Virus record (IMG/VR): IMGVR_UViG_3300037635_003078
Reading direction: 5' to 3' (one strand)
DNA: 64,000 nucleotides
DNA from: an uncultured virus (IMG/VR IMGVR_UViG_3300037635_003078)
Taxonomy: Duplodnaviria; Heunggongvirae; Uroviricota; Caudoviricetes
Of this stretch, positions 30,547 to 46,548 are shown piece after piece. The position numbers and the translations under genes were made by a program. Under the pieces are notes generated by a model. That model was given only the letters and a program-made list of their open reading frames with translations, had not been told where the DNA came from and made no database searches. Position 1 is the first letter of the stretch, and every line of letters begins with the position of its first letter.

Positions 30547-30560
30547 TAGGAGATAATTAA

Positions 30561-31214
30561 ATGCCAGCAATTACAAGTAAATTAGTCTTATCATCAGCCG
30601 CCCAATCAGCAAATACTGTATTAGCTGATATTGGTTTAATAAAAGGTGCGTTATATGGTGTAAGTACTTTTAGCGATTTGGGAAACATTCACTCTAACTA
30701 TGTTGAAGATGGGCAGTTGATGTTTGTCCAAGATGTATCAAAATTTTATTCGTTAACAATCACTGCGGCAAATCCACCAGTTACATTTACTGATACCTTT
30801 ACTTGGAATGAAGTAACACTCGGAGCAAGTGGAGCACTTACCGCAGATGATACGGGTTCGTTTATTCTAGCATCACAAACTGGCTCATTCTTAACTTCCG
30901 CAGATACGGGATCGTTTATTCTAGCATCACAAACCTCATCAATGTCGGTTGCTACATCATCATTTATTTCAGATTCATTCATATCAGCATCTGCTGCAAG
31001 AAGTGGGTTTGGTTCTGGTGGTAGTGGTGGTAGTGGAATATTCACACAAGTAGGTTCCGATTATACAACAACTAATAATCTTCAAATTACTGGATCTGTA
31101 ACTGTAAATAATGGGTTATTTAAATTAACGGAGTTCACAACACTACCAAATGTAGAAGAAGGTGCAATGGCATATTCAGCATCTAATTTTTACTTTGGTA
31201 TTGGTGATGTTTAA
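30561..31214 (+). CDS. Virion fibre-associated protein
   Basis: Shares ISASAA-x-SGFG and SI(W/F)T...ITGS modules with 25372..30546; internal TGSFILASQT duplication; AGGAG RBS. Confidence 0.6.
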   Translation: MPAITSKLVLSSAAQSANTVLADIGLIKGALYGVSTFSDLGNIHSNYVEDGQLMFVQDVSKFYSLTITAANPPVTFTDTFTWNEVTLGASGALTADDTGSFILASQTGSFLTSADTGSFILASQTSSMSVATSSFISDSFISASAARSGFGSGGSGGSGIFTQVGSDYTTTNNLQITGSVTVNNGLFKLTEFTTLPNVEEGAMAYSASNFYFGIGDV

Positions 31215-31313
31215 AATAATAAAAACATACTTATAATAAGAAAATAAATTTTAAAAAAGTTACATCGATATATCAATTAATTGTATTAATACAAAAACAA
31301 AGGAAAATTAATT

Positions 31314-32408
31314 ATGGCAACATGGAAAAAGGTCATTGTATCCGGTAGTAATATCTCGGATTTAAAAAATGACTCAAATTATTTATCAAGCGCAGGTGAT
31401 GGAATTATATCAGCATCATCTGTAAGTTCTACCGCTCAAGGTGAGTTTACCTCATCATTCAATGGTGTACTAACTGAACTTAACTTAGGATTAACATCAA
31501 CTGATGATGTTCAATTCAACTCTGTAACTGCATCAATTCAAGGTAATGTTGTTGGTGATGTAGTTGGTAATCTAACTGGTACTGCATCTTATGTAGATGG
31601 TGATGATGTTAACTTCGATGCGACTGGTAATGGTCAAACTGCAACTGAGTTCTCTGCATCTATCTCAGGTCGTATCTTAGGTCTTGAACAAGGACAATAT
31701 GACTTAGAGTTCTCTGGTTCGACTGGAGATGGTACAATTACTGATGCTGAACACCTTAGTATCTTAGGTGGTACAAACGTAGATACAGTAGCAGCCGGTA
31801 ACAGCCTTACTATTAACTTGGATGATACTATTAGTCTAAGTCAAGTAACTGCATCTATCGTATCTGCAAGTAATGGGTTTATTGGTGACTTAACAGGTGA
31901 TGTAACGGGTAATGCTGACACTGCGACTACCTCATCTTATGTAGCTGCATCTTCACCATCACAAGGTACAGTAACAATTACTGGTAACGACATTGACTTG
32001 GGTCTTCAAGTAGCTGATTCGCCTGTATTCGCCGATTTAAGACTTACGGGTAATCTTACAGTTGAAGGTACAAGAACTGAATTGAACGTAGCAAACTTGA
32101 ACGTAGAAGACGCATTCATTTTATTGAATTCTGGTTCAGCTAGTGGTGATACCGGTATCATTTTCGGTGGTGCTAACACTACTAATATCAATACTGGTTC
32201 AGCTATATTCTATGATGATAGTGATTCAGTATTTTCTTACGCTGCAGATGTTGAAGCGGGTGACGTTACAGCAACAGCTGCATCTAAATTAGGTAACATC
32301 CAAGTAATGGCTGGTGCTGGTTCTCATAATATGGCCGCAGCAACATTCCAAGGTGTGGGTACTATCGCTGTAGATAATGGTGAGTGTATTTGGATTCAAA
32401 CAGCGTAA
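31314..32408 (+). CDS. Tail-fibre-like protein
   Basis: MATWKKVIVSGS start; GDLTGDVTGNADTAT and LTGNLTVEG...LNVED fibre motifs. Confidence 0.65.
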   Translation: MATWKKVIVSGSNISDLKNDSNYLSSAGDGIISASSVSSTAQGEFTSSFNGVLTELNLGLTSTDDVQFNSVTASIQGNVVGDVVGNLTGTASYVDGDDVNFDATGNGQTATEFSASISGRILGLEQGQYDLEFSGSTGDGTITDAEHLSILGGTNVDTVAAGNSLTINLDDTISLSQVTASIVSASNGFIGDLTGDVTGNADTATTSSYVAASSPSQGTVTITGNDIDLGLQVADSPVFADLRLTGNLTVEGTRTELNVANLNVEDAFILLNSGSASGDTGIIFGGANTTNINTGSAIFYDDSDSVFSYAADVEAGDVTATAASKLGNIQVMAGAGSHNMAAATFQGVGTIAVDNGECIWIQTA

Positions 32409-32432
32409 TTTATTAATGTTGAAAAGGTTATA

Positions 32433-32628
32433 TATGAGTTTACATAAAAAGTTGGGATTGTCCAACAATAAAACTCAAAATGATAAAGAGGGAACCCTCA
32501 AGCTCACTAAGGGTGAGCTTGAGTCCCTTCTTATCGGATTGGGTGAAGCTTCATTTAAAGGTAAGCAAGTTGAGTCAGTATTCAAACTAGCTATGAAGAT
32601 TCAAAACGAAATTAAAAAATTAAGTTAA
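32433..32628 (+). CDS. Small hypothetical protein (possible fibre chaperone); start uncertain
   Basis: MSLHKKLG...FKGKQVE; resembles the next ORF (IRGKEAP). Confidence 0.5.
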
Positions 32629-32635
32629 TTTAATT

Positions 32636-32827
32636 ATGAAAAGTTACGAAGGATTAAATGCAAGTGATTGGAAGATAGTCCAAATTGCATTAAACAAAAT
32701 GGAAATTCGTGGTAAGGAAGCGCCTATAATCACAGGTATAATGGCAAAAGTTCAAATGGAACTTGAATTATTAGAATTACCCGTAAGTGAACGCCCTAAA
32801 AAGGGTGACATCATTACAAAGGAATAA
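32636..32827 (+). CDS. Small hypothetical protein (possible fibre chaperone)
   Basis: 63 aa, followed by a terminator. Confidence 0.6.
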   Translation: MKSYEGLNASDWKIVQIALNKMEIRGKEAPIITGIMAKVQMELELLELPVSERPKKGDIITKE

Positions 32828-32833
32828 TTTAAG

Positions 32834-32862
32834 AATCCTCTACAAAAGTAGGGGATTTTTTT
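32834..32862 (+). terminator. Intrinsic terminator
   Basis: AATCCTCTAC AAAA GTAGGGGATT followed by a T run. Confidence 0.85.
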
Positions 32863-32951
32863 ATTATAAACCAATCTACTACCAAATCTGAATTATCTAT
32901 GTGGTTTTTATTTTATAGTAAACTATTTATAAGAGATTAATCAAACATAAA

Positions 32952-33009
32952 CCTGGTTGTTGGCTCGAAAGAGAAGTGGGCATGAAAATGTTACCAACCG
33001 CAAATTAGG
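32952..33009 (+). ncRNA. Candidate structured cis-regulatory RNA in a 5' UTR
   Basis: Multi-stem junction with two GAAA-capped hairpins between the late motif (32924) and ATG (33018). Confidence 0.45.
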
Positions 33010-33017
33010 AAAAGGAT

Positions 33018-34925
33018 ATGCCGAATTGGAAAAAAGTCATCACTTCCGGTAGTGATGCAATTTTAAATCAAATTACATCATCAGGTGGAATAAACTCCAC
33101 CGATATTACAATCAATGATTGGGGAAGTGTATCAGCTTCATTAGCATCATTGGATACATTAACCTATGGTGATTCTGATGTCAAACTCAAATTAAATACT
33201 GAAGGTGTACTTAGTGGGTCTACATTCTCATCACCATCTCAAGGTACTGTTAGAGCTACCATAAATGGTGTTAATTCTGATGTAGATACTGGCTTACAAT
33301 CCGCAGATTCACCTACATTTGATAGTTTAACATTAACAGGTGACCTTACAGTATTAGGTAGTAAAGTAGACCTACAAGTAGCTGAACTTAATGTTCAAGA
33401 TAAATTTATAAAAATAGCAAGTGGGTCAGCTAATCCTACGGCCGCTAACGGTGCAGGTATTTATATTGATGGGGCTGATGTGTCTTTACATTGGTCTAGT
33501 ACCAATAGTAGATTTCAATTTGACGATGACCTACATACAGCAGCAACTCTTAACATTGGTAACGTAAACCACGCAACAACTGATACTGACAAGTTTTTGG
33601 TATTAGACTCTAATGGTGACGTAGACTATCGTACCGGCACTGAGGTCCTTTCAGATATTGGTGGTACTGGTGCTTCTAACCTTAGTGGTGCAGCAACTGA
33701 GATTCCATTCTTTAGTTCAACAAGTGCTATAACGAGTTCAGTTCGGTTAAAGTTAAATAAAAATATAACTACCGGTGATGTGTTAGTACACCATGGTCAG
33801 TTTAATGTAATCAATGACCCAAGTGTTTCGGGAACATCTGCAATGCAGATTATTGTGGGTTCTGGTTCAAGTGGTGATGTTTCAAATCCACAATATGATT
33901 CGTTCCTATCAATGGAACAAGAAAGTGCTACCATAGTAGGTCTTAGAGCACATGGTACAACACCAACATCAGCTCAAATTAAAATGAGAACTGATGTTAG
34001 TGATGCTTATTCGATTGGTAGACTAACAAACCCATATGGTGCAAATACTCTTAGAATAAAACCAGCTATTATTGCTGAAGGTGGTCTTTCTATAACTGGA
34101 TCATTAACTATATCGGGTTCTAATACATTAAAAAATATCGGACCAGCACAATTTAGTGGTTCGGTTAATATTAAAACAGATAAGCAAGTACAAGCAACAA
34201 CTGATACTGACAAGTTTGTTGTATTGGATGGTGACCAACTTAAATATAGAAGTGGTACGCAATTATATGATGATATAGGTGTTACTTCACTATCATCATC
34301 AATTGCAAGTGATATTGCTGGGCTTGATGCTGCTAGTGGTAATTACGTTATAAATGATACTGGAGCATCATCTAATAGATTAGCTATTTGGTCTAATACT
34401 GCCCGAATTAAAGGTGATTCTGCTTTTAAAATCCTCGAAAATAAATATGGTCAAGGTTTTCAATTTGACCAATGGGGTGGTAACCAAGTTGATACACTTA
34501 AATCACCGGCCTTCAAAGGGAATGGTTTGGAACTTGGAGATAATATCCCTGGAACCCCAGCACCATTCACAGCGTCTCTCACAATTCATACAAATCACGG
34601 AAACACTAGCAACTCAGTAGAAAAAACAGCTGAAGGTCATCAGTATGGAGTAGGCACTCATGTAATTTATCAAAAAGTGGGTTCGTCTTTCCATATACAT
34701 TACAATATTTCAGAGGGTAGTGCAATGCGTTCTGGACAATTAACTATTGTTGTTAGTGGTAACGAGGTAGCGATGACCGAATATAGTACAACTGATATTG
34801 GAACTGGAAGTTCAAGTCCAGCTCAATTCTCAGCAACAGCATCTAACGGTGTGTTAACATTATCGATAACATCCGCCGGTGGTGGAACTATTTTGTTTAA
34901 CGTAGAACGTATGTATAGTATATAA
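33018..34925 (+). CDS. Tail-fibre-like protein
   Basis: MPNWKKVITSGS start, segments shared with 31314..32408; two TDTDKF(L/V)VLD modules. Confidence 0.65.
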   Translation: MPNWKKVITSGSDAILNQITSSGGINSTDITINDWGSVSASLASLDTLTYGDSDVKLKLNTEGVLSGSTFSSPSQGTVRATINGVNSDVDTGLQSADSPTFDSLTLTGDLTVLGSKVDLQVAELNVQDKFIKIASGSANPTAANGAGIYIDGADVSLHWSSTNSRFQFDDDLHTAATLNIGNVNHATTDTDKFLVLDSNGDVDYRTGTEVLSDIGGTGASNLSGAATEIPFFSSTSAITSSVRLKLNKNITTGDVLVHHGQFNVINDPSVSGTSAMQIIVGSGSSGDVSNPQYDSFLSMEQESATIVGLRAHGTTPTSAQIKMRTDVSDAYSIGRLTNPYGANTLRIKPAIIAEGGLSITGSLTISGSNTLKNIGPAQFSGSVNIKTDKQVQATTDTDKFVVLDGDQLKYRSGTQLYDDIGVTSLSSSIASDIAGLDAASGNYVINDTGASSNRLAIWSNTARIKGDSAFKILENKYGQGFQFDQWGGNQVDTLKSPAFKGNGLELGDNIPGTPAPFTASLTIHTNHGNTSNSVEKTAEGHQYGVGTHVIYQKVGSSFHIHYNISEGSAMRSGQLTIVVSGNEVAMTEYSTTDIGTGSSSPAQFSATASNGVLTLSITSAGGGTILFNVERMYSI

Positions 34926-34973
34926 AATAAATTAAATCCTAAGTTTGGAAAGTGAAAAACACGAGGAAATAAA

Positions 34974-35753
34974 ATGTCAAATAAATTTGTAATAAAGAAT
35001 GGACTTAAAGTACAATCAGGTGGTATAAACACCACTGGTGATTTATCTATTACAGGTTCATTAGTAGTAACTGGAACACTAACGGCTGAGTCTTATATAG
35101 TAAGTTCCTCTGTAACACATAAGACTACCACATTTAGTAGTGGGTCAACCCAATTTGGTGATACTTCTAATGATACCCATGGATTTACCGGGTCAATGGA
35201 TGTAACTCAACAAATTACTACACCGGATATAAAATTAACTGGATTAAGTAATGCAGGTGTTGATACTGATAAGTTCTTAGTATTAGACTCAAATAGTAAT
35301 GTAGATTTTAGAACTGGTACTCAAGTACGTTCTGATATAGGTGCTGTAGCTATTGGTAATGAAATCCACCCAATACAATTGACAATAGATACGAAAAATT
35401 CACCTTTTGGTTATGTCGCATTTTCAGGATTATCTGATATACAATCACTCCCTAATAGAGCATTCACTACCTTTATAGCACCATGTACTGGTTACATCGA
35501 AGATATAATTGTATCACCCGAACAAACTAATTCAGTTCAGGACGATTGTGATATTTCACTATATAATGGTGGTTCGCAACAATCCTCTACAAATACGGAA
35601 ACGTTACAAAGTGCAGGTACTAATGTAACCTTTAACTTTGGGGCTTCAAATTACTCATTTAGTAACGGAGATAGATTGAGTCTTGAATTTGATAAAAAAA
35701 CTAATACTTCTGAATTGTACAATATGATGATTGTACTTAGGTTAACAAGTTAA
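34974..35753 (+). CDS. Fibre-associated virion protein
   Basis: SGSTQFGDTSNDTHGFTGS motif; DTDKFLVLDSN module shared with the upstream gene. Confidence 0.6.
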   Translation: MSNKFVIKNGLKVQSGGINTTGDLSITGSLVVTGTLTAESYIVSSSVTHKTTTFSSGSTQFGDTSNDTHGFTGSMDVTQQITTPDIKLTGLSNAGVDTDKFLVLDSNSNVDFRTGTQVRSDIGAVAIGNEIHPIQLTIDTKNSPFGYVAFSGLSDIQSLPNRAFTTFIAPCTGYIEDIIVSPEQTNSVQDDCDISLYNGGSQQSSTNTETLQSAGTNVTFNFGASNYSFSNGDRLSLEFDKKTNTSELYNMMIVLRLTS

Positions 35754-35766
35754 GGGATAAAGTAAT

Positions 35767-38700
35767 ATGGAATTAATACACGGTTTACATAAAGATACCT
35801 TAATAGACATCAATGGGAGTCTCCAAAATATTGGTGACATACAACCGGGTGACGTAGTAAAAGGTTTTGAAATAAAAAGTGGTGTCGTAAGAGACAATAA
35901 AGTTGTTTGGGTAAAAACATCAACAATCGGCTCTTACATTGAATTCACCCTTTCAGATGGTTCTAACGTAAAATCATCAGTTGATGCTAAAATCTTAACC
36001 CTAATGGGTGAGTGGGTTTCACCAATAAATGCATTCAACAAACAAAAAGAATTACACAACGACCTACACATTACCTCATTAAGGTATGTAGAAGAATCGT
36101 TAGATATTATAAGTATAGAGGTAGAGCCTGACCACAATTACTATGTAGGTAAATTACTATTCCACAATACGGGTCCAACTGGTCCAGCTGGTCTAAAGGG
36201 TCAAAAAGGAGAAGCTGGTAATAAAGGTGTTACTGGAGCTCAAGGACCTCAAGGTGCACAGGGTCAAAAGGGAGCTACTGGTTCACAAGGACCTGGTGGT
36301 TCTACCGGCCCAACCGGACCTCAAGGCCCAACTGGTAACAATGGTGTAACTGGTCCTAAAGGTGCAACTGGCCCAACCGGCCCCAAAGGTTCAACAGGCC
36401 CTCAAGGTGGAACAGGCCCTCAAGGTGCTAAAGGTGTAAACGGACCTACTGGTTTAACTGGCCCTCAAGGTGCTCAAGGGAATGCCGGTCCTAAAGGTCA
36501 AAAAGGAGCTACTGGCTCACAAGGTGGAACTGGTGCTACAGGTGGAAAGGGTTCCACTGGTTCAAAAGGACCACAAGGTGCTGATGGCCCTCAAGGTGCT
36601 AAAGGCCCACAAGGTGCTACTGGCCCACAAGGTGATAAAGGTCAAAAAGGTGCAACTGGCTCAACCGGTCCTCAAGGTGGAGTAGGTCCACAGGGTGGAG
36701 CAGGCCCACAAGGTGCTACTGGCCCACAAGGTGGAACTGGTCCAACAGGCCCTAAAGGTCAAAAAGGAGCTACCGGCTCACAAGGTGGAACTGGCGCAAC
36801 AGGTCCTCAAGGTGCTGATGGTCCTCAAGGTGCAACTGGCCCTAAAGGTGCTACTGGCCCACAAGGTGCTACTGGCCCACAAGGTGGAAAAGGTCAAAAA
36901 GGAGCTACCGGCTCACAAGGTGGAAAAGGTTCACAAGGTGCTAAAGGTGTAAACGGACCTACTGGTTTAACTGGCCCTCAAGGTGCTCAAGGAAATCCCG
37001 GCCCTAAAGGTGCAACAGGAGCTACTGGCTCACAAGGTGGAACTGGTGCTCAAGGTGGAAAAGGTTCTACTGGCTCAACTGGCCCACAAGGTGCTGCTGG
37101 CCCACAAGGTGCTAAAGGCCCACAAGGTGCTACTGGCCCACAAGGTGGAAAAGGTCAAAAAGGTGCAACTGGTTCAACCGGTCCTCAAGGTGGGGTAGGT
37201 CCTCAAGGTGGAGCAGGCCCACAAGGTGCTACTGGCCCACAAGGTGATACTGGCCCAACAGGCCCTAAAGGTCAAAAAGGAGCTACCGGCTCACAAGGTG
37301 CAACTGGCCCAACAGGACCTCAAGGTGCTGATGGTCCTCAAGGTGTAACTGGCCCTCAAGGTGCTACTGGCCCTCAAGGTGCTACTGGCCCACAAGGTGG
37401 AAAGGGTCAAAAAGGAGCTACCGGCTCACAAGGTGGAAAAGGTTCACAAGGTGCTAAAGGTATAAACGGACCTACTGGTTTAACTGGCCCTCAAGGTGCT
37501 CAAGGAAATCCTGGCCCTAAAGGTCAAAAAGGAGCTACTGGCTCACAAGGTGGAACTGGTGCTCAAGGTGGAAAAGGTTCTACTGGCTCAACTGGCCCAC
37601 AAGGTGCTGCTGGCCCACAAGGTGATAAAGGTCCACAAGGTGCTACTGGCCCACAAGGTGATAAAGGTCAAAAAGGTGGAACTGGCTCAACAGGCCCTCA
37701 AGGTGGAGTGGGTCCTCAGGGTGGAGCAGGCCCACAAGGTGCTACTGGCCCACAAGGTGATACTGGCCCAACCGGTCCTAAAGGTCAAAAAGGAGCTACT
37801 GGCTCACAAGGTGCAACTGGTCCAACAGGACCTCAAGGTGCTGATGGTCCTCAAGGTGCAACTGGCCCTCAAGGTGCTACTGGCCCTCAAGGTGCTACTG
37901 GCCCACAAGGTGGAAAGGGTCAAAAAGGAGCTACCGGCTCACAAGGTGGAAAAGGTTCACAAGGTGCTAAAGGTGTAAACGGACCTACTGGTTTAACTGG
38001 CCCTCAAGGTGCTCAAGGAAATCCCGGCCCTAAAGGTGCAACAGGAGCTACTGGCTCACAAGGTGGGACTGGTGCTCAAGGTGGAAAAGGTTCTACTGGC
38101 TCAACTGGCCCACAAGGTGCTGCTGGCCCACAAGGTGCTAAAGGTCCACAAGGTGCTACTGGCCCACAAGGTGATAAAGGTCAAAAAGGTGGAACTGGCT
38201 CAACAGGCCCTCAAGGTGTAGTAGGTCCTCAAGGTCAAACAGGCCCTCAAGGTGGGACAGGCCCACAAGGTGATACTGGCCCAACAGGCCCTAAAGGTCA
38301 AAAAGGAGCTACTGGCTCACAAGGTGCAACTGGCGCAACCGGTCCTCAAGGTGATACCGGCCCACAAGGTGCGGTAGGTCCAACCGGTCCAACTCAACCA
38401 AAAGGTCAAAAGGGAGCTACTGGCTCACAAGGTGCAACTGGTCCAACAGGACCTCAAGGTGCTGATGGCCCTCAAGGTGCAACTGGCCCACAAGGTGATA
38501 AAGGCCCACAAGGTGCTACTGGCCCACAAGGTGATAAAGGTCAAAAAGGTGGAACAGGCGCAGATGGTGGTAAAGGTCAACAAGGTGACCAAGGTGCTCA
38601 AGGTTTAACAGGTGGAACAGGCCCACAAGGTGACCAAGGTGCTCAAGGTGATACCGGCCCTCAAGGTGATAAAGGTCAAAAAGGTCAAACTGGCCCTCAA

Positions 38701-39501
38701 GGTGCTGATGGCCCTCAAGGTGCTGATGGCCCTCAAGGTGCTACTGGCCCACAAGGTGATAAAGGTCCTCAAGGTGTAACTGGCCCACAAGGTGATAAAG
38801 GTCAAAAAGGTCAAACCGGCCCAGATGGTGAAAAGGGTCAACAAGGTGACCAAGGTGCAACTGGTCCAACTGGTGGAACAGGCCCACAAGGTGACCAAGG
38901 TGCTCAAGGTGATACCGGCCCTCAAGGTGATAAAGGTCAAAAAGGTCAAACTGGCCCTCAAGGTGCTGATGGCCCTCAAGGTGCTGATGGCCCTCAAGGT
39001 GCTACTGGCCCACAAGGTGATAAAGGTCCTCAAGGTGTAACTGGCCCACAAGGTGATAAAGGTCAAAAAGGTCAAACCGGCCCAGATGGTGAAAAGGGTC
39101 AACAAGGTGACCAAGGTGCAACTGGTCCAACTGGTGGAACAGGCCCACAAGGTGACCAAGGTGCTCAAGGTGATACCGGCCCTCAAGGTGATAAAGGTCA
39201 AAAAGGTATAACTGGCCCTCAAGGTGTTGCTGGCCCTCAAGGTGATACTGGTTCCCAAGGTAATGTGGGTCCTCAAGGTGATAAAGGTCAAAAAGGTCAA
39301 ACTGGATTTGAAGGTGCTAAAGGTCAAAAAGGTCAAACCGGCCTACAAGGCTCTAAAGGTCAAAAAGGTATTTCTGCTCTTGGTACACTAATTAGTGGTG
39401 TATCACCTGGATTGACGTGGGATACTACAAGAGGTGTACTTAAATTTAATAATGGTGGTAGTACTTATGTACTTCATATGTACGTAAGTGGTTCATACTA
39501 A
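35767..39501 (+). CDS. Collagen-like fibre protein 1 with N-terminal Hint domain
   Basis: aa 1-134 Hint-like ([10 protein letters not shown] ... [19 protein letters not shown]); about 1065 aa of Gly-X-Y; short C-terminal domain. Confidence 0.9.
36300..38300 (+). repeat. 513-nt (171 aa) tandem repeat, about 4 copies; boundaries approximate
   Basis: GGACCTACTGGTTTAACTGGCCCTCAAGG at 36442, 36955, 37468, 37981. Confidence 0.9.
38460..39240 (+). repeat. 261-nt (87 aa) tandem repeat, about 3 copies; boundaries approximate
   Basis: (G/C)CAGATGGTG anchors at 38560, 38821, 39082. Confidence 0.9.
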
Positions 39502-39519
39502 TATAGATAAACAAGTAAT

Positions 39520-42500
39520 ATGGCAGGATTAAATACACAACTCGTAAGATTACCAAATAGTTCATCAGTTACGATTAACACTCTACAAAGTGGGTCATCA
39601 GTAAGTGGTGTTGTATTACCAGGTTTAGGTTTAAATGAACAAGACTTTAGAAATTGGTCTTCTACTGATATATCTTCAACCTCACTTGGCGTAGCCAGTG
39701 TTGTATTTGAAGCAACCCATAGTGGTAGTGTCATCGAATTCAATAGTGGTGACCTTACAGTATCACAACATCAAAAAATCTTAATTAAAGATTCGAGTGG
39801 TTCGTATTACTTTACACCTGCTAATACTGTTAATTTAAATTCTGATTATTTAGTAAAGTACACCGATAGTGGTATAGTTGAAGAACTAATCACTTCAGCA
39901 TACGAAATACAAAACCAATCCATACATACCATTGCTATTGAAGACATTGACGTTTACTTAGCAGATGGATACATAGTTCATAATCCACCTGGATATAATA
40001 TTTTCAGTTGTGACCCAGCTACCGGCTATATGTACTATGGTGATAGATTTATGCTTGATGTAGATCCTGGCCCAAACTCTTTGCTTTGTTACGAGGCTGT
40101 ATTCGATGAAGTAGGTACTATTCCAGATAGAGCTCCCGACAATTGTGTATTTACAGGCAACCCTGTCGAGGAAGCTTCCTTTGGTATCGTTCTTGCAGAA
40201 CAATGTGGTGATTCTCCTTTTGGCGATACGGATACTTCACCGGGTCCTGCCGGTCTAGCAGGACAAAAGGGTCAAAAAGGTAATGATAATAAGGGGTATA
40301 AAGGTAGTACTGGTGGTCAAGGTCCTAATGGATTAGAAGGAGCAAAAGGTTCAACTGGCGCACAAGGTCCTACTGGTGGACAAGGTCCTACTGGTCCCCA
40401 AGGTGCATCAGGTTCAACGGGACCTCAAGGGCCAAAAGGTTCAGCCGGCCCATCTCCTGGTGGTGACCAAGGTGCAACTGGCCCCACCGGTCCTCAAGGT
40501 AATTCCGGAAACCAAGGTCCTAAAGGTGTTCAAGGCCCACAAGGTGCAGTTGGTCCATCACCTGCAGGTCAAAAAGGTGCAACTGGCCCACAAGGTGCTC
40601 AAGGACCATCTGGTGGTGTCGGAGACGTTGGTGCAGCTGGTTCTAAAGGTGTTCAAGGCCCACAAGGTGATGAAGGTGCAGTAGGTGCATCACCAAAAGG
40701 TGCTGCTGGTCAAAAGGGAGCTACTGGTTCAACCGGCCCTAAAGGTGTTCAAGGTCCTAAAGGTGTACAAGGCCCTAAAGGTGTTCAAGGTCCTAAAGGT
40801 GTAAATGGACCATCGCCAGCAGGTCAAAAAGGAGCTACCGGGTCCAAAGGAGATACTGGCCCTCAAGGCCCTAAAGGTATTCAAGGTCCTAAAGGTGTTC
40901 AAGGCCCACAAGGTGATGAAGGTGCCGTAGGTGCATCACCTAAAGGTCAAAAAGGTGAAACTGGTGCTACTGGCTCTAAAGGAGATACTGGCCCACAAGG
41001 TAATTCAGGAAATCAAGGTCCTAAAGGTGTTCAAGGCCCACAAGGTGCAGTTGGTCCATCACCTGCAGGCCAAAAAGGTGCAACTGGCCCACAAGGTGCT
41101 GAAGGACCATCTGGTGCCAATGGTGATAAAGGTGTTCAAGGTCCTAAAGGTGTTCAAGGTGGAGTAGGTGATGAAGGTGCCGTAGGCGCATCACCTAAAG
41201 GTGCTGCTGGTCAAAAGGGAGCTACTGGTTCAACCGGCCCTAAAGGTGTTCAAGGTCCTAAAGGCGTTCAAGGCCCTAAAGGTGTTCAAGGTCCTAAAGG
41301 TAAAAATGGAGCATCACCAGCAGGTCAAAAAGGTGCTACTGGCCCTAAAGGAGATACTGGCCCTCAAGGCCCTAAAGGTATTCAAGGTCCCAAGGGTGTT
41401 CAAGGCCCACAAGGTGATGAAGGTGCAGTAGGTGCATCACCTAAAGGTCAAAAAGGTGAAACTGGTGCTACTGGCTCTAAAGGAGATACTGGCCCACAAG
41501 GTAATTCAGGAAATCAAGGTCCTAAAGGTGTTCAAGGCCCACAAGGTGCAGTTGGTCCATCACCTGCAGGCCAAAAAGGTGCAACTGGCCCACAAGGTGC
41601 TGAAGGACCATCTGGTGCCAATGGTGATAAAGGTGTTCAAGGTCCTAAAGGTGTTCAAGGTGGAGTAGGTGATGAAGGTGCCGTAGGCGCATCACCTAAA
41701 GGTGCTGCTGGTCAAAAGGGAGCTACTGGCCTTCAAGGTCCTGTTGGTGGTCAAGGTGAAGATGGTGTTCAAGGCCCTAAAGGTGTTCAAGGTCCTAAAG
41801 GTGTAAATGGTCCATCACCAGCAGGTCAAAAAGGAGCTACTGGCCCTAAAGGAGATACTGGCCCTCAAGGCCCACTTGGTGACCAAGGTCCTAAAGGTAT
41901 AACTGGCCCACAAGGTTCATCTGCTCCTGGTCAAAAAGGAGCTACTGGTCCTAAAGGAGATACTGGCCCGCAAGGCCCTAAAGGTGTTCAAGGCCCTAAA
42001 GGTGTTCAAGGTGGAGTAGGTGATGAAGGTGCAGTAGGTGAATCACCTAAAGGTCAAAAAGGTGAAACGGGTGCTCAAGGACCATCGGGTATTTCAGGTG
42101 ATAGTGGAAATAAAGGTATTCAAGGTTCTAAAGGTGTTCAAGGTCCTAAAGGTATAAAAGGTATAATTGGATTATCACCTAAAGGTCAAAAAGGTGAAAC
42201 TGGCGGTCAAGGTCCTAAAGGTGTTCAAGGTCCTAAAGGCGTTCAAGGCCCTAAAGGTGTTCAAGGTGGAGTAGGTGATGAAGGTGCAGTAGGTGAATCA
42301 CCTAAAGGTCAAAAAGGTGAAACGGGTGCTCAAGGACCATCAGGTATTTCAGGTGATAGTGGTGATAAGGGTGTTCAAGGTTCTAAAGGTATTCAAGGTC
42401 CTAAAGGTATAAAGGGTATAATTGGATTATCACCTAAAGGTCAAAAAGGTGAAACTGGTGGTCAAGGTCCTAAAGGTGTTCAAGGTCCTAAAGGCGTTCA

Positions 42501-43002
42501 AGGCCCTAAAGGTGTTCAAGGTGGAGTAGGTGATGAAGGTGCAGTAGGTGAATCACCTAAAGGTCAAAAAGGTGAAACGGGTGCTCAAGGACCATCAGGT
42601 ATTTCAGGTGATAGTGGTGATAAAGGTATTCAAGGTTCTAAAGGTATTCAAGGTCCTAAAGGTATAAAAGGTATAATTGGATTATCACCTAAAGGTCAAA
42701 AAGGTGAAACTGGCGGTCAAGGTCCTAAAGGTGTTCAAGGTCATAAAGGTGCTCAAGGTCCTAAAGGTATACAAGGCAATACTGGTGGTGAGGGTCAAAA
42801 AGGCCAGACTGGCGCTTCACCACTTGGTGAAACTGGTTCTAAAGGTCAACAAGGTGGTGTTGGTGATAAAGGTAACCAGTTATCGGGTGGATATTTTGAA
42901 TGGGATGAGTCTTTAGATAAGTTGGTATTCAAAGAATATGGTTATTCAAGTGGTGACCCTCTTTATGTAGTAGAAACTTACTTCAGTGGTTCATCTTATT
43001 AA
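39520..43002 (+). CDS. Collagen-like fibre protein 2 with N-terminal Hint domain and periodic G-x-S-P-x-G interruptions
   Basis: aa 1-155 Hint-like (INTLQSGSSV ... IAIEDIDVYLADGYIVHN|P); 4-Cys domain; about 880 aa collagen; C-terminal domain similar to collagen 1. Confidence 0.88.
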   Translation: MAGLNTQLVRLPNSSSVTINTLQSGSSVSGVVLPGLGLNEQDFRNWSSTDISSTSLGVASVVFEATHSGSVIEFNSGDLTVSQHQKILIKDSSGSYYFTPANTVNLNSDYLVKYTDSGIVEELITSAYEIQNQSIHTIAIEDIDVYLADGYIVHNPPGYNIFSCDPATGYMYYGDRFMLDVDPGPNSLLCYEAVFDEVGTIPDRAPDNCVFTGNPVEEASFGIVLAEQCGDSPFGDTDTSPGPAGLAGQKGQKGNDNKGYKGSTGGQGPNGLEGAKGSTGAQGPTGGQGPTGPQGASGSTGPQGPKGSAGPSPGGDQGATGPTGPQGNSGNQGPKGVQGPQGAVGPSPAGQKGATGPQGAQGPSGGVGDVGAAGSKGVQGPQGDEGAVGASPKGAAGQKGATGSTGPKGVQGPKGVQGPKGVQGPKGVNGPSPAGQKGATGSKGDTGPQGPKGIQGPKGVQGPQGDEGAVGASPKGQKGETGATGSKGDTGPQGNSGNQGPKGVQGPQGAVGPSPAGQKGATGPQGAEGPSGANGDKGVQGPKGVQGGVGDEGAVGASPKGAAGQKGATGSTGPKGVQGPKGVQGPKGVQGPKGKNGASPAGQKGATGPKGDTGPQGPKGIQGPKGVQGPQGDEGAVGASPKGQKGETGATGSKGDTGPQGNSGNQGPKGVQGPQGAVGPSPAGQKGATGPQGAEGPSGANGDKGVQGPKGVQGGVGDEGAVGASPKGAAGQKGATGLQGPVGGQGEDGVQGPKGVQGPKGVNGPSPAGQKGATGPKGDTGPQGPLGDQGPKGITGPQGSSAPGQKGATGPKGDTGPQGPKGVQGPKGVQGGVGDEGAVGESPKGQKGETGAQGPSGISGDSGNKGIQGSKGVQGPKGIKGIIGLSPKGQKGETGGQGPKGVQGPKGVQGPKGVQGGVGDEGAVGESPKGQKGETGAQGPSGISGDSGDKGVQGSKGIQGPKGIKGIIGLSPKGQKGETGGQGPKGVQGPKGVQGPKGVQGGVGDEGAVGESPKGQKGETGAQGPSGISGDSGDKGIQGSKGIQGPKGIKGIIGLSPKGQKGETGGQGPKGVQGHKGAQGPKGIQGNTGGEGQKGQTGASPLGETGSKGQQGGVGDKGNQLSGGYFEWDESLDKLVFKEYGYSSGDPLYVVETYFSGSSY
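40490..41900 (+). repeat. 501-nt (167 aa) tandem repeat, about 3 copies; boundaries approximate
   Basis: Identical off-frame ORFs at 40931 and 41432 in the ORF track are 501 nt apart. Confidence 0.88.
41980..42740 (+). repeat. 255-nt (85 aa) tandem repeat, 3 copies; boundaries approximate
   Basis: GGTGAAACGGGTGCTCAAGGACCATC at 42061, 42316, 42571. Confidence 0.9.
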
Positions 43003-43037
43003 ATAAATTTTCATATTTATAGTAAATAAGTTTAGTT

Positions 43038-43637
43038 ATGGAAAAGAATTTTAATTTTAGTGATAGTTCACGTAGCTTTGTAGACTACTCAAATTACTAC
43101 TGGTTTAAAGATGGGTTTACTACTACCGAACTCGTTGATATAGAATCCCTCACAACTAATTTGGATTGGGTAGACGCTCAAACTGGTCAAGATGTTAAAT
43201 CCAAAATCACCGATTATAGAAAATCAAAAATTAAATGGTGTCCACAATCAGACGAGTGGTATTGGGTATACGAAAAGTTGTCTGATATGATTAAGACCGC
43301 TAATAAAACCATGTGGGACTTTGAATTAACTCAAATGAGAGAGCAAATTCAATATACCGAATATTATAGTGGTGGTGGTCAGTACGACTGGCATATGGAT
43401 TGTGGTATTGGTATACAAAACCAACGGAAGGTCTCAGTAACTGTTCAATTATCCGACCCATCTGAATATGAGGGTGGTGATTTACAATTTAATATTGGTG
43501 GTAGTTGGATTACAGCACCACGTATAAAGGGAGCTGCTGTTATTTTTCCATCATTCTTTCTACACAGAGTAACACCTATAACTAAAGGTACACGAAAGTC
43601 CTTTGTATTGTGGGTGGGTGGTGAACCATTTAAATAA
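43038..43637 (+). CDS. 2OG-Fe(II) dioxygenase (prolyl-hydroxylase/PKHD-like)
   Basis: YDWHMD, RKVSVTVQLS, YEGGDL, FPSFFLHRVTP, GTRKSFV. Confidence 0.92.
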   Translation: MEKNFNFSDSSRSFVDYSNYYWFKDGFTTTELVDIESLTTNLDWVDAQTGQDVKSKITDYRKSKIKWCPQSDEWYWVYEKLSDMIKTANKTMWDFELTQMREQIQYTEYYSGGGQYDWHMDCGIGIQNQRKVSVTVQLSDPSEYEGGDLQFNIGGSWITAPRIKGAAVIFPSFFLHRVTPITKGTRKSFVLWVGGEPFK

Positions 43638-43644
43638 ATAAAAT

Positions 43645-45339
43645 ATGAAGGTATTATTTGTATCAGGTTATCAAAAATCTAAATGGTCATTAGATACTTG
43701 GATTAACGAAGGTGCTGGTGGCACTGAGTATATGGTACTCAAATTAGCACACTTCTTCAAGTTAAACGGCCATGACGTTGTAGTTACTGGTGAAGTTGAC
43801 ACGGCCAACATCGATGGTGTTGACTATGTAGATTACGAGATACTTTCCAAAAAATATAAAAATAATAAATTTGATATTGTAATATGTACTAACTATATTC
43901 ATTATATATTAGAGTTAGCTGAACATAATATTACATACGACAAATCTTACTTTTGGATTCATAATAATGAATACTATCCGTGGTGGAATGGTATGACATT
44001 AGACAACGATGGTTATGATTTCTTCTTAGATGATAGAATGACCAATATCGTATTGGTATCGAATTACCAAAAGGAAATATTCTTAAAAAAATATCCTGAG
44101 TTAGAACACAAAGTCTTAGTAATCCCAAATGGTATAGACTTATCAGATTGGAGTGGTATATCTAACGAAAAGATACCAAATAGATTTATATACTCATCAG
44201 CTCCAGATAGAGGATTAAAAACCCTACTAAGAATGTGGCCGAAGATAAAGGCGTTGTACTCAGACGCTACATTGATAGTAACCTCACCACCATATGCACT
44301 TGAGTGGTATGATTCGTATAAAGATGATTTAGATGGTGTTACATTTTACGATGGGTTATCTCCAAAAAAATTATACAATGAGATTTCTAAATCCGAATAT
44401 TGGCTGTACCCATCCAAGTATGATGAGACATTTTGTATAACGGCATTAGAAATGATGCAAGGTGGTGTTAAGATATTAACAACTGATACTGGTAATCTTT
44501 TATCACTAATACAGGGGTGTGGTATAATCGAACCATCATCTAAAAAAGATAGTGATTTAGAAAGTTCACTTATACAACAAATTGGTAGGTTGAAAAATTC
44601 ACCATCACTATCTTCTAAAATATTAGATAATTCTAAAAATAAAGTAAAGCAATTTGACTTTCCAAAGATATATAAGAAATGGATAGATACAATAGAGTTT
44701 AAAGTTATGCCTGATAAACTACATCCAGAATTGTATACATATTATGATAACGCTCATTCTTGGAAAGAACGATTCATAACATACTCAGCTAAAACTAAAG
44801 AATGGGATTTGATTGTAGATGAACCATTTACAAATACATTCTCATTTCCATTATTTACTCCTGAGTTTTGTAAAATGATTAGGGAAGAAGCTGAGTATGC
44901 AGATGCTTGGACAGTTGATAGGCATGAAAATTATCCAACCACTGATATGATATTAGAAACTATTGGAATGCAGGACATTTATATGGATGTTCTAAAAGAG
45001 TATGTCATGCCACTTTCGATTCATATGTGGGAATTGGAAGGTAAGGGTTGGGATAACCTAACATCAGAAAACTTTTTAGCCAGATACACGCCAAATGCTC
45101 AAGGTCATTTATCAATACACCATGATATGTCTGACATTACGTGTTTAGTACAATTATCAAACCTCACTGAATATGAGGGTGGTGGTACATGGTTCAGACG
45201 ACAAAAACAATTATTAAAAAATGATATAGGGTATGTAACTTTACATCCTGGAAATATAACCCATAAACATGGGGCAAGAGCGGTATCGTCAGGTAAAAGA
45301 TATATCATAGTTTCCTTTATGAGAAATACGGAAAGATAA
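43645..45339 (+). CDS. GT-B (GT4-like) glycosyltransferase fused to a PLOD-like lysyl hydroxylase domain
   Basis: GGTE, IPNGID, YSSAPDRGL, YPS-x-YDETFCITALE; C-terminal FPLFTPEFC, ENYPTTD, NFLARY, HHD, YEGGG, LHPGNITHKHG, GKRYIIVSF. Confidence 0.88.
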   Translation: MKVLFVSGYQKSKWSLDTWINEGAGGTEYMVLKLAHFFKLNGHDVVVTGEVDTANIDGVDYVDYEILSKKYKNNKFDIVICTNYIHYILELAEHNITYDKSYFWIHNNEYYPWWNGMTLDNDGYDFFLDDRMTNIVLVSNYQKEIFLKKYPELEHKVLVIPNGIDLSDWSGISNEKIPNRFIYSSAPDRGLKTLLRMWPKIKALYSDATLIVTSPPYALEWYDSYKDDLDGVTFYDGLSPKKLYNEISKSEYWLYPSKYDETFCITALEMMQGGVKILTTDTGNLLSLIQGCGIIEPSSKKDSDLESSLIQQIGRLKNSPSLSSKILDNSKNKVKQFDFPKIYKKWIDTIEFKVMPDKLHPELYTYYDNAHSWKERFITYSAKTKEWDLIVDEPFTNTFSFPLFTPEFCKMIREEAEYADAWTVDRHENYPTTDMILETIGMQDIYMDVLKEYVMPLSIHMWELEGKGWDNLTSENFLARYTPNAQGHLSIHHDMSDITCLVQLSNLTEYEGGGTWFRRQKQLLKNDIGYVTLHPGNITHKHGARAVSSGKRYIIVSFMRNTER

Positions 45340-45384
45340 CCTACATACTATTTATATAATGACTAATAGTATTTAGGAGCATAA

Positions 45385-46548
45385 ATGTCAGTAAACATTC
45401 CAATTTGGCCAGGTTCAGGCTCATTCGCAAGTGGTTCATCAACTCCATTTGGGTATTTTGATAGTGATACACAATTCCAATCAGATGCCCCCAAAGTGGC
45501 TGAGTGGTGTGCTAAACGTTTGGGTTACCCTATAATCGATATTGAATTACAAGATATCAATATGTTCGCTTGCCTCGAAGAAGCTGTAAGTGAGTATTCA
45601 TCTCAAGTAAACCAATATAGAGCAAAAGAGAATATGTTATCTATTCAAGGTTCTGACTTGGATTTGGATTTGACAAATACAAATATGAACGCTAATATGC
45701 AAAACTTAGTAAATATTGCTAAGGATTATGGTACTGAGGCACTTAGTGGTGGTAAAGTAACAGTATATACTGGTTCATTTGAAATGGTTGCAGGTCAACA
45801 AATTTATGACCTTGGTGATGATAATAACGTAAACTTAGAAAATGGTGTAATTGCAAATGGTGTAACGCTTCGTAGAGTATACCACACACAACCACCAGCA
45901 ATCATTAGATACTTTGACCCATTCGTAGGTACTGGTATGGGTTCACAACAAATGATGGAAACCTTTGGGTGGGGTAACTACTCGCCAGGTGTTTCTTTTA
46001 TGATGCAACCAATGTTTGATGACCTTTTAAGACTTCAAGCAATAGAATTCAACGATAAGATTCGTAAATCATCATATGGATTCCATGTTGATGGTCAGAG
46101 AATTAGACTATATCCAATTCCAAGTGGTGGTGATACTGGCGCTAAGGTGTATTTTGATTATACATTAGATAGTGAGGTAAATTCACCAATAGCAAACTCA
46201 AACGTAGTGAGTGATTTGTCTAACGCTCCATTTGGAAGATTAGTATACTCAAATATCAATTCATCAGGTAAACAATGGATTGCTAGATACTCATTAGCAT
46301 TGGCTAAAGAGATGTTAGGTGCAGTTCGTTCTAAGTTTTCTTCTATACCAATACCGGGTGCTGATGTAACACTTGATGGGTCTGACCTTCGTAACGAAGC
46401 ATCTGCTGAAAAAGAAGCATTGATGACTCAATTGACTGAAATGTTGGAATCAACATCTCGTAGAGCATTGATGGAAGCGAGAAAAGAAGAATCGGAGTAT
46501 TTAGAAGAAACTCTAAATAGAGTACCAAGACCAATTTTTATAGGATAA
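45385..46548 (+). CDS. Neck / head-completion protein (T4 gp13-like)
   Basis: RLGYPIIDIEL; WIARYSLALAKEMLG...KF...IPG..VTLDG. Confidence 0.82.
   Translation: MSVNIPIWPGSGSFASGSSTPFGYFDSDTQFQSDAPKVAEWCAKRLGYPIIDIELQDINMFACLEEAVSEYSSQVNQYRAKENMLSIQGSDLDLDLTNTNMNANMQNLVNIAKDYGTEALSGGKVTVYTGSFEMVAGQQIYDLGDDNNVNLENGVIANGVTLRRVYHTQPPAIIRYFDPFVGTGMGSQQMMETFGWGNYSPGVSFMMQPMFDDLLRLQAIEFNDKIRKSSYGFHVDGQRIRLYPIPSGGDTGAKVYFDYTLDSEVNSPIANSNVVSDLSNAPFGRLVYSNINSSGKQWIARYSLALAKEMLGAVRSKFSSIPIPGADVTLDGSDLRNEASAEKEALMTQLTEMLESTSRRALMEARKEESEYLEETLNRVPRPIFIG

Follow-up and report, generated by a model that had tools for sequence, protein, structure and literature searches.

A predicted GT4 glycosyltransferase fused to a PLOD-type lysyl hydroxylase domain, encoded beside lysine-rich collagen-like fibre genes in an uncultured T4-like myovirus

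Animal collagen is held to be marked out by hydroxylysine and its glycosides, and mimivirus is the known exception. Human LH3 (PLOD3) is a 738-residue protein of the endoplasmic reticulum lumen. The mimivirus protein L230, whose published catalytic residues are an Fe triad of His825, Asp827 and His877 and a 2-oxoglutarate (2OG) binding pair of Tyr814 and Arg887 (PMC5802723), is accompanied in the same virus by R655, a GT25-like gene that stands apart, and by the glucosyltransferase R699 (PMC9546862). Here we describe a 564-residue protein, GT4-LH, that joins a predicted GT4 glycosyltransferase domain to a lysyl hydroxylase (LH) domain of the PLOD/L230 type. It is encoded on the plus strand at positions 43645-45339 of a 64,000-nucleotide stretch of DNA (the window) from an uncultured tailed virus (IMG/VR record IMGVR_UViG_3300037635_003078), and was analysed through its open reading frame, Pfam, sequence searches of the PDB, an AlphaFold2 model and Foldseek.

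In a 2022 review of prokaryotic collagens, giant viruses alone among viruses are named as hydroxylating and glycosylating their collagen, and phage collagens are described as segments of about 18 residues and set aside (PMC8968730). The COLGALT1 structure paper mentions BLAST relatives in giant viruses and bacteria (PMC12003778), and Iyer et al. (2010) describe tandem dioxygenases in cyanophages and predict that bacterial collagen-like proteins are hydroxylated by other oxygenase families (PMC2938197). Glycosyltransferases in the host-recognition clusters of myophages have been read as modifiers of lipopolysaccharide (LPS) O-chains (PMC7029224), and the use that viruses make of prolyl 4-hydroxylase has been termed 'cryptic' (PMC9301287). 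Across the literature outside subscription journals and supplements, we found no account in which bacteriophages have a lysyl hydroxylase or a pathway to hydroxylysine.

The GT4-LH reading frame starts with ATG, 8 nt past the stop codon of the preceding gene, and its LH domain comprises residues 357-564 (44713-45336), as delimited by PDB sequence matches and Foldseek. When all PDB sequences were searched with HMMER, human LH3/PLOD3 was matched over query residues 357-559 with an E value of 6.3e-29 and the LH domain of mimivirus L230 with an E value of 5.7e-22. Six of the seven matches at E<=1 are LH3 or L230, the seventh is a fluorescent protein at E 0.43, which we regard as noise, and no other oxygenase was found at that threshold. 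An unrelated 2OG oxygenase identity for this domain was considered and ruled out, since the PDB matches are LH3 and L230 alone. A first-pass annotation, made from the DNA letters and their translations, had recognised seven PLOD motifs in the C-terminal 200 residues; all seven are present there, as FPLFTPEFC, ENYPTTD, NFLARY, HHDMS, YEGGGTWFRR, LHPGNITHKH and GKRYIIVSF, and they occupy identical columns in the HMMER alignment to LH3.

The residues expected of an active enzyme are found at these motifs and are invariant in all 35 sequences of an alignment of GT4-LH relatives with 41-86% identity. The HxD element of the Fe(II) triad, H492-H493-D494 (45118-45126), is aligned to H667/D669 of LH3; the distal Fe(II) histidine, H542 (45268-45270), lies in a THKH motif aligned to THYH of LH3; R552 (45298-45300), which corresponds to the arginine of the LH3 RYI motif and to R887 of L230, would contact the C5-carboxylate of 2OG; and Y481, within NFLARY, is aligned to the 2OG-binding tyrosine of LH3. 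A residue that we take to be Cys691 of LH3, numbered from the alignment offset, is aligned to a threonine in GT4-LH. With the 35-sequence alignment as input, AlphaFold2 gave a model whose mean pLDDT is 88.4, and comparison of this model with the PDB by Foldseek places LH3 chains first (E 3e-20). The LH domain superposes on L230 (6ax6_B) with a TMt of 0.85, an rmsd of 2.6 A and 29% identity, in the fold of an LH-type double-stranded beta-helix. A complex prediction for two copies of residues 350-564 gave a score of 0.01 and a mark of 0.32, values that are uninformative either way about an L230-like dimer. The PLOD-like identity proposed in the first pass thus agrees with both sequence and fold: the C-terminal domain is a PLOD/L230-family lysyl hydroxylase domain with intact catalytic residues, and collagen lysine is its predicted target.

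The N-terminal domain (residues 1 to ~340; 43645-44664) is assigned by Pfam and Foldseek to the two-Rossmann GT-B fold and the GT4 family. It passes the Pfam cut-offs of three glycosyltransferase models, PF13439 (Glyco_transf_4; 30.3 against 28.5 bits), PF13692 (Glyco_trans_1_4; 30 against 27) and PF00534 (Glycos_transf_1; 29 against 26.4). Structural comparison returned retaining GT-B enzymes of GT4 with TMt values of 0.63-0.73 and sequence identities of 11-17%, among them PimA (2gej, 0.73), 7qsg (0.70), BshA, MshA and WaaG (0.63-0.69) and a mycobacterial mannosyltransferase. An EX7E motif, which marks GT4 enzymes in the C-terminal Rossmann domain, is present as E261...E269 (ETFCITALE; 44425-44451), and both glutamates are invariant in 35/35 relatives. 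The PLOD-type GT-A model PF25342 does not match GT4-LH at E<=0.01, and the same model matches 20 of 74 other LH proteins, as well as gp218 of Synechococcus phage S-CAM9, both of which are described below. The source (JGI) annotation of GT4-LH matches is 'glycosyltransferase involved in cell wall biosynthesis'. With the Pfam scores and the modelled fold both pointing the same way, the earlier call of a GT-B/GT4 partner stands, and we interpret this domain as a GT4 glycosyltransferase of the retaining type.

The genes preceding GT4-LH encode its proposed substrates. Collagen-like fibre protein A (1244 residues; 35767-39501, plus strand; Pfam Collagen E 3.5e-133) has 355 G-X-Y triplets, with lysine in Y in 76 and in X in none, and with proline in X in 116 and in Y in 3. 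Collagen-like fibre protein B (1160 residues; 39520-43002, plus strand; Pfam Collagen E 1.6e-93) has 279 triplets in 22 runs, with 78 lysines in Y and one in X, and with 75 prolines in X and none in Y. These counts agree with the first-pass observation of lysine-rich Y positions and abundant X-Lys-Gly. Because proline is nearly confined to X, the two proteins offer practically no X-Pro-Gly to a classical prolyl 4-hydroxylase, and X-Lys-Gly is plentiful. Between collagen B and GT4-LH lies a gene for a small 2OG-Fe(II) oxygenase of 199 residues (43038-43637, plus strand) that resembles PKHD, YbiX and PiuC (Pfam 2OG-FeII_Oxy_3, PF13640, E 8.3e-14).

This arrangement is conserved in uncultured viruses. 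A relative of GT4-LH is encoded in 336 of 362 candidate IMG/VR stretches, and in the best 80 of these 336 a gp13-like neck gene lies directly downstream of it (80/80). Where 2600 nt or more of upstream sequence is present, as at 60 of these loci, a collagen-like open reading frame and a homologue of the small oxygenase each occur upstream on the same strand in 60/60, in the order collagen, oxygenase, GT4-LH. The 64 distinct collagen reading frames found beside these relatives carry lysine in Y in 3812 and in X in 82 of 14,504 triplets. An extra GT2-family glycosyltransferase gene (about 430 residues, PF00535 E 5e-15; for example L029:8707-9999) stands between the oxygenase and GT4-LH in 57/60, and the other three loci, which are near-identical to the window, are without it. 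No homologue of this GT2 gene was found in the window or in an IMG/VR record of 178,233 bp, G001, that has 100% of the window's sampled 31-letter words in common with it and has direct terminal repeats and an estimated completeness of 100%.

The wider family suggests a third enzyme. A word-indexed search found relatives of GT4-LH in 505 protein clusters at E<=1e-3; among the 120 clusters listed, 90 are 544-603 residues long, 29 are 786-842 residues and one is 472 residues. The long relatives have a GT25 domain (PF01755) inserted between GT4 and LH, and among solved structures the inserted domain is best matched by the catalytic domain of human COLGALT1, the enzyme that galactosylates hydroxylysine in collagen (E 5e-12); for bacterial GT25 structures the E value is only 0.12. 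A stand-alone GT25 of about 250 residues is encoded in G001 (L001:1456-2247), about 34 kb upstream of the window start (PF01755, 46.2 and 55.1 bits against a cut-off of 24). COLGALT1 is again its best solved relative (E 3.7e-14), the two proteins aligning at the acidic EDD motif, and stand-alone GT25 genes were also present in 5/5 related large phage records. One triple fusion, P0060, contains the LH domain closest to that of the window and is collinear with GT4-LH except for the GT25 insert. The two proteins are 48% identical in GT4 and ~67% identical in LH by BLASTP (75-77% over the domain), and the GT25 domain of P0060 is 34% identical to the stand-alone GT25 (E 6e-35). At L001:385-924 of G001, some 1 kb upstream of this stand-alone gene, lies a gene for an FkbM-family methyltransferase (PF05050 E 1e-20), which might methylate a sugar or might be unrelated.

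When the LH domain by itself was used as query in an exhaustive search without profiles, it yielded 2094 representatives at E<=1e-3, 88 of them at E<=1e-30. Architectures were scanned with Pfam in 74 of the 78 listed representatives of at least 380 residues, four being left out for size. GT4-GT25-LH was found in 16/74, GT25-LH in 12/74 and GT25-LH preceded by unassigned sequence in 5/74, GT4-LH in 2/74, GT_PLOD-LH in 12/74, GT25-GT_PLOD-LH in 7/74 and GT_PLOD-GT25-LH in 1/74; the remaining 19/74 have other partners or none that was recognised. This pattern of fusions is evidence, at the level of domain architecture, that LH, GT25 and GT4 may act together. The two-step function suggested in the first pass is corrected accordingly to a probable three-step one, a GT25 domain being present in the relatives and a separate GT25 gene here. 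The original GT4 and LH assignment is essentially right, and the system is fuller than was envisaged: a predicted set of three enzymes, whose glycosyltransferase parts can stand in for one another, that occurs widely in uncultured marine myoviruses. Among the architectures scanned, a metagenomic protein of 919 residues (P0243) joins a COLGALT1-like GT25 (E 6e-53) to a full LH3-like assembly of glycosyltransferase, accessory and LH domains (E 4e-102), and six further GT25-GT_PLOD-LH representatives are similar.

The history of these fusions was approached with a quick maximum likelihood tree of LH domains (LG+G4, SH-aLRT support only), which is unrooted and was midpoint-rooted for drawing. Its 115 rows are the window LH domain and the 114 of 150 listed representatives whose match covers at least 170 query positions; the rows include neither L230 nor any named animal PLOD, and the names recorded for ten LH representatives were a Choanoeca flexa entry and partial entries from Flavobacteriales metagenome-assembled genomes only. 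The window LH domain falls in a set of 22 rows with a support of 99, made up of GT4-GT25-LH, GT25-LH and GT4-LH proteins. A separate clade of 30 rows, with a support of 98, holds 14 of the 20 PLOD-GT-bearing rows and the choanoflagellate protein; the half of the tree that contains the window domain also has three GT_PLOD-LH rows and a single row each of GT25-GT_PLOD-LH and GT_PLOD-GT25-LH, and one further GT_PLOD-LH row lies in the other half, outside the 30-row clade. The GT4-LH label changes at least four times on the tree, whose deep forks are weak (80-86). The tree thus supports frequent domain shuffling and a GT4 association that would have arisen apart from the PLOD architecture. Independent assembly, as the first-pass annotation had it, fits the position of the window LH domain apart from the PLOD-GT clade, but the tree, unrooted and weak at its deep forks, gives neither the direction nor the number of assembly events.

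Two cultured phages can be compared with the window. A tblastn search of GT4-LH against 50,697 phage records matched 14, none over 80% or more of the query, the matches being confined to the glycosyltransferase (26% identity) or to LH (28%). One of the matched proteins, S-CAM9 gp218 (YP_009322466.1; L113:4642-6483, equivalent to NC_031922.1 34413-36254), has 613 residues and is annotated 'hypothetical protein'; it comprises GT25 and PLOD-GT domains identified by Pfam and an LH-like C-terminus identified by tblastn. Its gene stands downstream of one for a tail fibre and of two 2OG-FeII_Oxy_3 genes, and this fibre has a collagen stretch with lysine in Y in 22/59 triplets. Chiefly because S-CAM9 has a retaining GT-A enzyme (PLOD-GT) in the place of GT4, with the same GT25 and LH next to it, we propose that GT4 is a non-homologous replacement of the PLOD-type glucosyltransferase. 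Phage S-PRM1 gave an LH match similar to that of S-CAM9. Microcystis phage Mel-JY01, the nearest cultured relative of the window, has neither an LH domain, in a search in which G001 as positive control gave exactly one, nor a GT25. The six commonest Y residues in the 166 triplets of its collagen-like protein are Ser, Arg, Asp, Gly, Asn and Thr, so that lysine, being outside these six, can occupy at most 4/166.

We consider it likely that GT4-LH, from a T4-like marine myovirus of roughly 178 kb, is a bifunctional enzyme whose LH domain makes hydroxylysine on the fibre collagens and that this hydroxylysine is then glycosylated. The LH domain would hydroxylate the Y-position lysines of X-Lys-Gly in the collagen A and B chains while these are still unfolded during infection, a step to which homology, the intact active-site residues and the linkage to collagen genes all point. 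The stand-alone COLGALT-like GT25 would add the first sugar to hydroxylysine by an inverting reaction, as is suggested by its similarity to COLGALT1 and by the fusions. Most probably the fused GT4 domain would then add the second sugar with retention, in the place held in PLOD3 by a retaining GT-A enzyme; alternatively, GT4 might glycosylate hydroxylysine directly, as L230 does. A role for GT4 in the series is indicated by the fusion pattern and by the S-CAM9 parallel. Finally, the modified chains would trimerise into virion fibres. The purpose is a matter for speculation and might be to stabilise a triple helix that lacks proline or hydroxyproline in Y, to decorate the fibres, to confer protease resistance or to serve receptor recognition. 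Speaking for this scheme are the matches, fold and residues of LH, the collagens with lysine in Y, the 60/60 linkage and the neck gene downstream in 80/80, the fusions, the contrast between S-CAM9 and Mel-JY01, and the GT-B fold and EX7E motif of GT4.

A number of observations weigh against it. The domain identities, the intact catalytic residues, the fold, the conserved gene order and the pattern of domain fusions are direct results of the analysis; from homology and gene context we infer what the enzymes do, on which substrate, in what order, with which sugars and linkage, and to what purpose. Pfam matches the first half of the LH domain alone, with an OGFOD2-like model (PF25238, E 1.8e-9) that also matches many PLOD-like proteins, and the generic 2OG-FeII_Oxy models of Pfam do not match the domain. 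The nearest structures to the GT4 domain act on lipids, thiols and polysaccharides, and GtfA, a protein O-GlcNAc transferase, stands among its structural neighbours at rank 46 and no higher. Threonine, another possible sugar acceptor, occupies Y in 118/355 triplets of collagen A, where it is the second commonest Y residue, and in 39/279 of collagen B. The set of glycosyltransferases varies between clusters, the GT2 gene being present in 57/60 and absent here, and Mel-JY01 is the one negative control. Additionally, relatives with 34-46% identity occur at eight bacterial loci (Granulosicoccaceae, Rhodobacteraceae (Aliishimia), a Chromatiales symbiont of Bugula, Flavobacteriaceae, Thiotrichales and Aquimarina), and a collagen-like reading frame was found within the examined flanks of 0/8; in the three loci scanned for neighbours, these are housekeeping genes. 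These bacterial copies weaken any claim of a constant linkage to collagen, without contradicting the phage context. A prophage context for them was considered and ruled out on account of the housekeeping neighbours in those three loci. Elsewhere in the genome, collagen-like proteins were found in 4/5 bacterial carriers and in 4/14 control genomes; the Aliishimia protein has lysine in Y in 64/158 triplets, and the Aquimarina ones have none.

The alternative that survives best divides the two activities, such that LH acts on collagen lysine and GT4 O-glycosylates Thr or Ser, either in G-X-T triplets or in another fibre protein, the fusion serving to bring the two enzymes together. Glycosylation of Thr and Ser has its model in Bacillus BclA or in the cuticle collagens of worms. 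The frequency of threonine in Y and the presence of GtfA among the structural neighbours of GT4 are in keeping with such a division, as is the extra GT2 gene, by which several glycosyltransferases would belong to one cluster. We nevertheless hold it to be unlikely: the GT4-GT25-LH triple fusion ties GT4 to a COLGALT-like enzyme as well as to LH, and the retaining GT_PLOD that S-CAM9 has in GT4's place suggests that the two glycosyltransferases have equivalent roles.

A second alternative is that GT4-LH is a host-directed auxiliary gene product, in which GT4 remodels host LPS, cell wall or exopolysaccharide and the oxygenase acts on a host protein or small molecule, its proximity to collagen genes being incidental. 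The JGI names denote a cell-wall glycosyltransferase, WaaG and PimA, which resemble the GT4 domain in structure, act on lipids of the envelope, the bacterial homologues lie among housekeeping genes with no collagen nearby, and such glycosyltransferases of marine myophages are read as O-chain modifiers in PMC7029224. Set against this are the linkage to collagens with lysine in Y in every one of the 60 loci, the oxygenase domain that in the PDB matches collagen lysyl hydroxylases alone, the common fusions with COLGALT-like GT25 and PLOD-GT, and the joint absence of LH, GT25 and Y-lysine collagen from Mel-JY01, and we regard the host-directed explanation as improbable. Least credible, and in our view very improbable, is an LH domain of other specificity (for X-position proline or another fibre residue, or demethylase-like) whose likeness to PLOD reflects ancestry only, since, despite the abundance of proline in X and its near absence from Y and a family far more diverse than the animal PLODs, a separate small oxygenase conserved in the cluster could serve proline, the identity to LH3 spans the whole 200-residue domain including the active-site surroundings, and L230, which stands about as far from those of animals, has been shown by experiment to be a lysyl hydroxylase (PMC5802723 and PMC9546862).

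The genomic setting of GT4-LH is that of a phage structural region. Profile searches of the window proteins identify a T4-like myovirus with genes for the large terminase, a Gp20-type portal, the prohead protease, a Gp23 capsid protein, PhoH, a gp15-like sheath stabiliser, the tail sheath, the tail tube and a baseplate protein. By its tail sheath the nearest cultured relative is Mel-JY01, at 57% identity across 99% of the protein, with ordinary cyanomyoviruses far more distant; all 2,692 matching records have less than 60% identity. A megablast search with positions 43000-45400 against the 50,697 phage records, a set from which the window's own or a very near record has possibly been left out, gave no match. 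The cluster is bordered downstream by the gene for a neck protein, a gp13-like head-tail adaptor (45385-46548, plus strand; PHROG 211, E 8.5e-16). Between PhoH and this gene, positions 25372-45339 form a block of about 20 kb that encodes a giant adhesin-like protein of 1724 residues with a cadherin-like match, several fibre-like proteins, the collagens, the small oxygenase and GT4-LH. In Mel-JY01, PhoH is followed directly by the gp13-like gene and the block is absent at the same place, so that 25372-45339 is a hypervariable island. Elsewhere in the window, positions 7265-9553 encode a 762-residue protein with an N-terminal cytidylyltransferase-like domain (PF01467 E 5e-5), which might be linked to nucleotide-sugar supply; a gene of Mel-JY01 is annotated 'cytidylyltransferase like protein'.

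Additional features of the collagens and of the small oxygenase bear on how the fibres might be processed. Residues 1-134 of collagen A (35767-36168, plus strand) were modelled by AlphaFold2 with a pLDDT of 90.2 as an intein-like Hint/BIL domain. Foldseek matches this domain to Tetrahymena BIL2 (6y75, E 1e-9), the DnaB intein (1mi8) and NpuDnaE (4kl5) with TM values of about 0.8; Pfam gives Intein_splicing alone, at E 0.05, on the N-terminal 140 residues, so that the Hint fold rests on structure. The domain ends in HN134, directly before T135-G-P, where the G-X-Y repeats start, and the HN|TGP junction is invariant in 7/7 homologues; the first position of the Hint domain is Gly instead of Cys. 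These features suggest that the fibre is processed through its Hint domain, by autoproteolytic C-terminal cleavage or in another way. In collagen B and its homologues (window 39520-40260), a DGYIVHN or DGFVVHN motif occurs about 150 residues in and is followed by a Cys-containing stretch before the repeats, a region that may be a second and more divergent Hint-like domain. Collagens A and B and the L029 homologue have similar non-collagen tails of about 40 residues, G(D/S)P.Y.(V/I)...(F/Y).SGS(Y/I) (39340-39501 in A and 42850-43002 in B), which are possibly trimerisation or registration domains. Apart from the N-terminus of A, no Pfam model matched the end pieces of the collagens, including the N-terminal region of B and both tails. 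The small oxygenase has the PKHD-type hydroxylase PiuC as its best PDB match (E 2.7e-9) and matches NCBIfam PRK05467 under its cut-offs. Since the collagens are nearly without Y-position proline, we think it improbable that this enzyme is a collagen prolyl 4-hydroxylase of the classical kind, and the abundant X-position proline is one candidate for its target.

A common group of marine myoviruses here encodes lysine-rich fibre proteins that exceed 1000 residues, together with a PLOD-family hydroxylase and with COLGALT-like and GT4 glycosyltransferases. We suggest tentatively, as a proposal on which we place clearly less confidence than on the bifunctional enzyme itself, that marine tailed phages possess a self-contained pathway from lysine through hydroxylysine to glycosyl-hydroxylysine for their own collagen fibres, drawing on LH, GT25 and either a PLOD-type GT-A or a GT4 enzyme; that modification of the animal Glc-Gal-Hyl (glucosyl-galactosyl-hydroxylysine) type has been re-created by domain shuffling; that many 'auxiliary metabolic' glycosyltransferases and 2OG oxygenases of phages are in fact virion-modifying; and that this pool is perhaps a reservoir of the PLOD and COLGALT systems of eukaryotes and giant viruses. 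Such a pathway would extend collagen lysine modification to viruses of bacteria and offer a natural case of a GT-B enzyme replacing a GT-A enzyme within one pathway. It would also lead to a reinterpretation of glycosyltransferase and hydroxylase genes in host-recognition islands, as against the host-envelope and cryptic auxiliary metabolic gene readings found in PMC7029224 and PMC9301287. Furthermore, it would provide compact enzymes of the bacterial cytoplasm for producing hydroxylated, glycosylated recombinant collagen, and would bear on the origin of the animal enzymes.

GT4-LH and its partners can be set beside several known systems. PimA, BshA, MshA and WaaG share with GT4-LH the GT-B fold and the EX7E motif, but at 11-17% identity, and all four lack a fused oxygenase and have no known action on collagen. 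The phage GT25 and the GT25 domain of the fusions match best the catalytic GT2 domain of COLGALT1/GLT25D1 (PDB 9evj, 8zgc), whereas the phage enzyme is a single domain of about 250 residues without the non-catalytic GT1 domain and is separate from the GT4-LH reading frame. S-CAM9 gp218 is likewise a phage LH protein downstream of a tail-fibre gene with G-X-K triplets and of two 2OG-FeII_Oxy_3 genes; it differs in combining GT25, GT_PLOD and LH with no GT4, and its LH domain is about 28% identical to that of the window. Human LH3/PLOD3 (PDB 6fxk, among others) has a homologous LH domain of about 200 residues with the same Fe triad and 2OG-binding Arg and Tyr, joined to a glycosyltransferase in one polypeptide, and X-Lys-Gly is available here as its substrate is there. 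However, LH3 has a PLOD-type GT-A glycosyltransferase and an accessory domain, in contrast to the GT-B/GT4 partner of the phage protein, which has 564 residues and would be cytoplasmic. Mimivirus L230 is a further parallel, also a viral fusion of LH and a glycosyltransferase, with collagen-like proteins of the same virus as its targets; L230 comes from a giant virus that infects amoebae and has a PLOD-type glycosyltransferase, whereas GT4-LH belongs to a tailed bacteriophage and has a predicted GT4 in its place.

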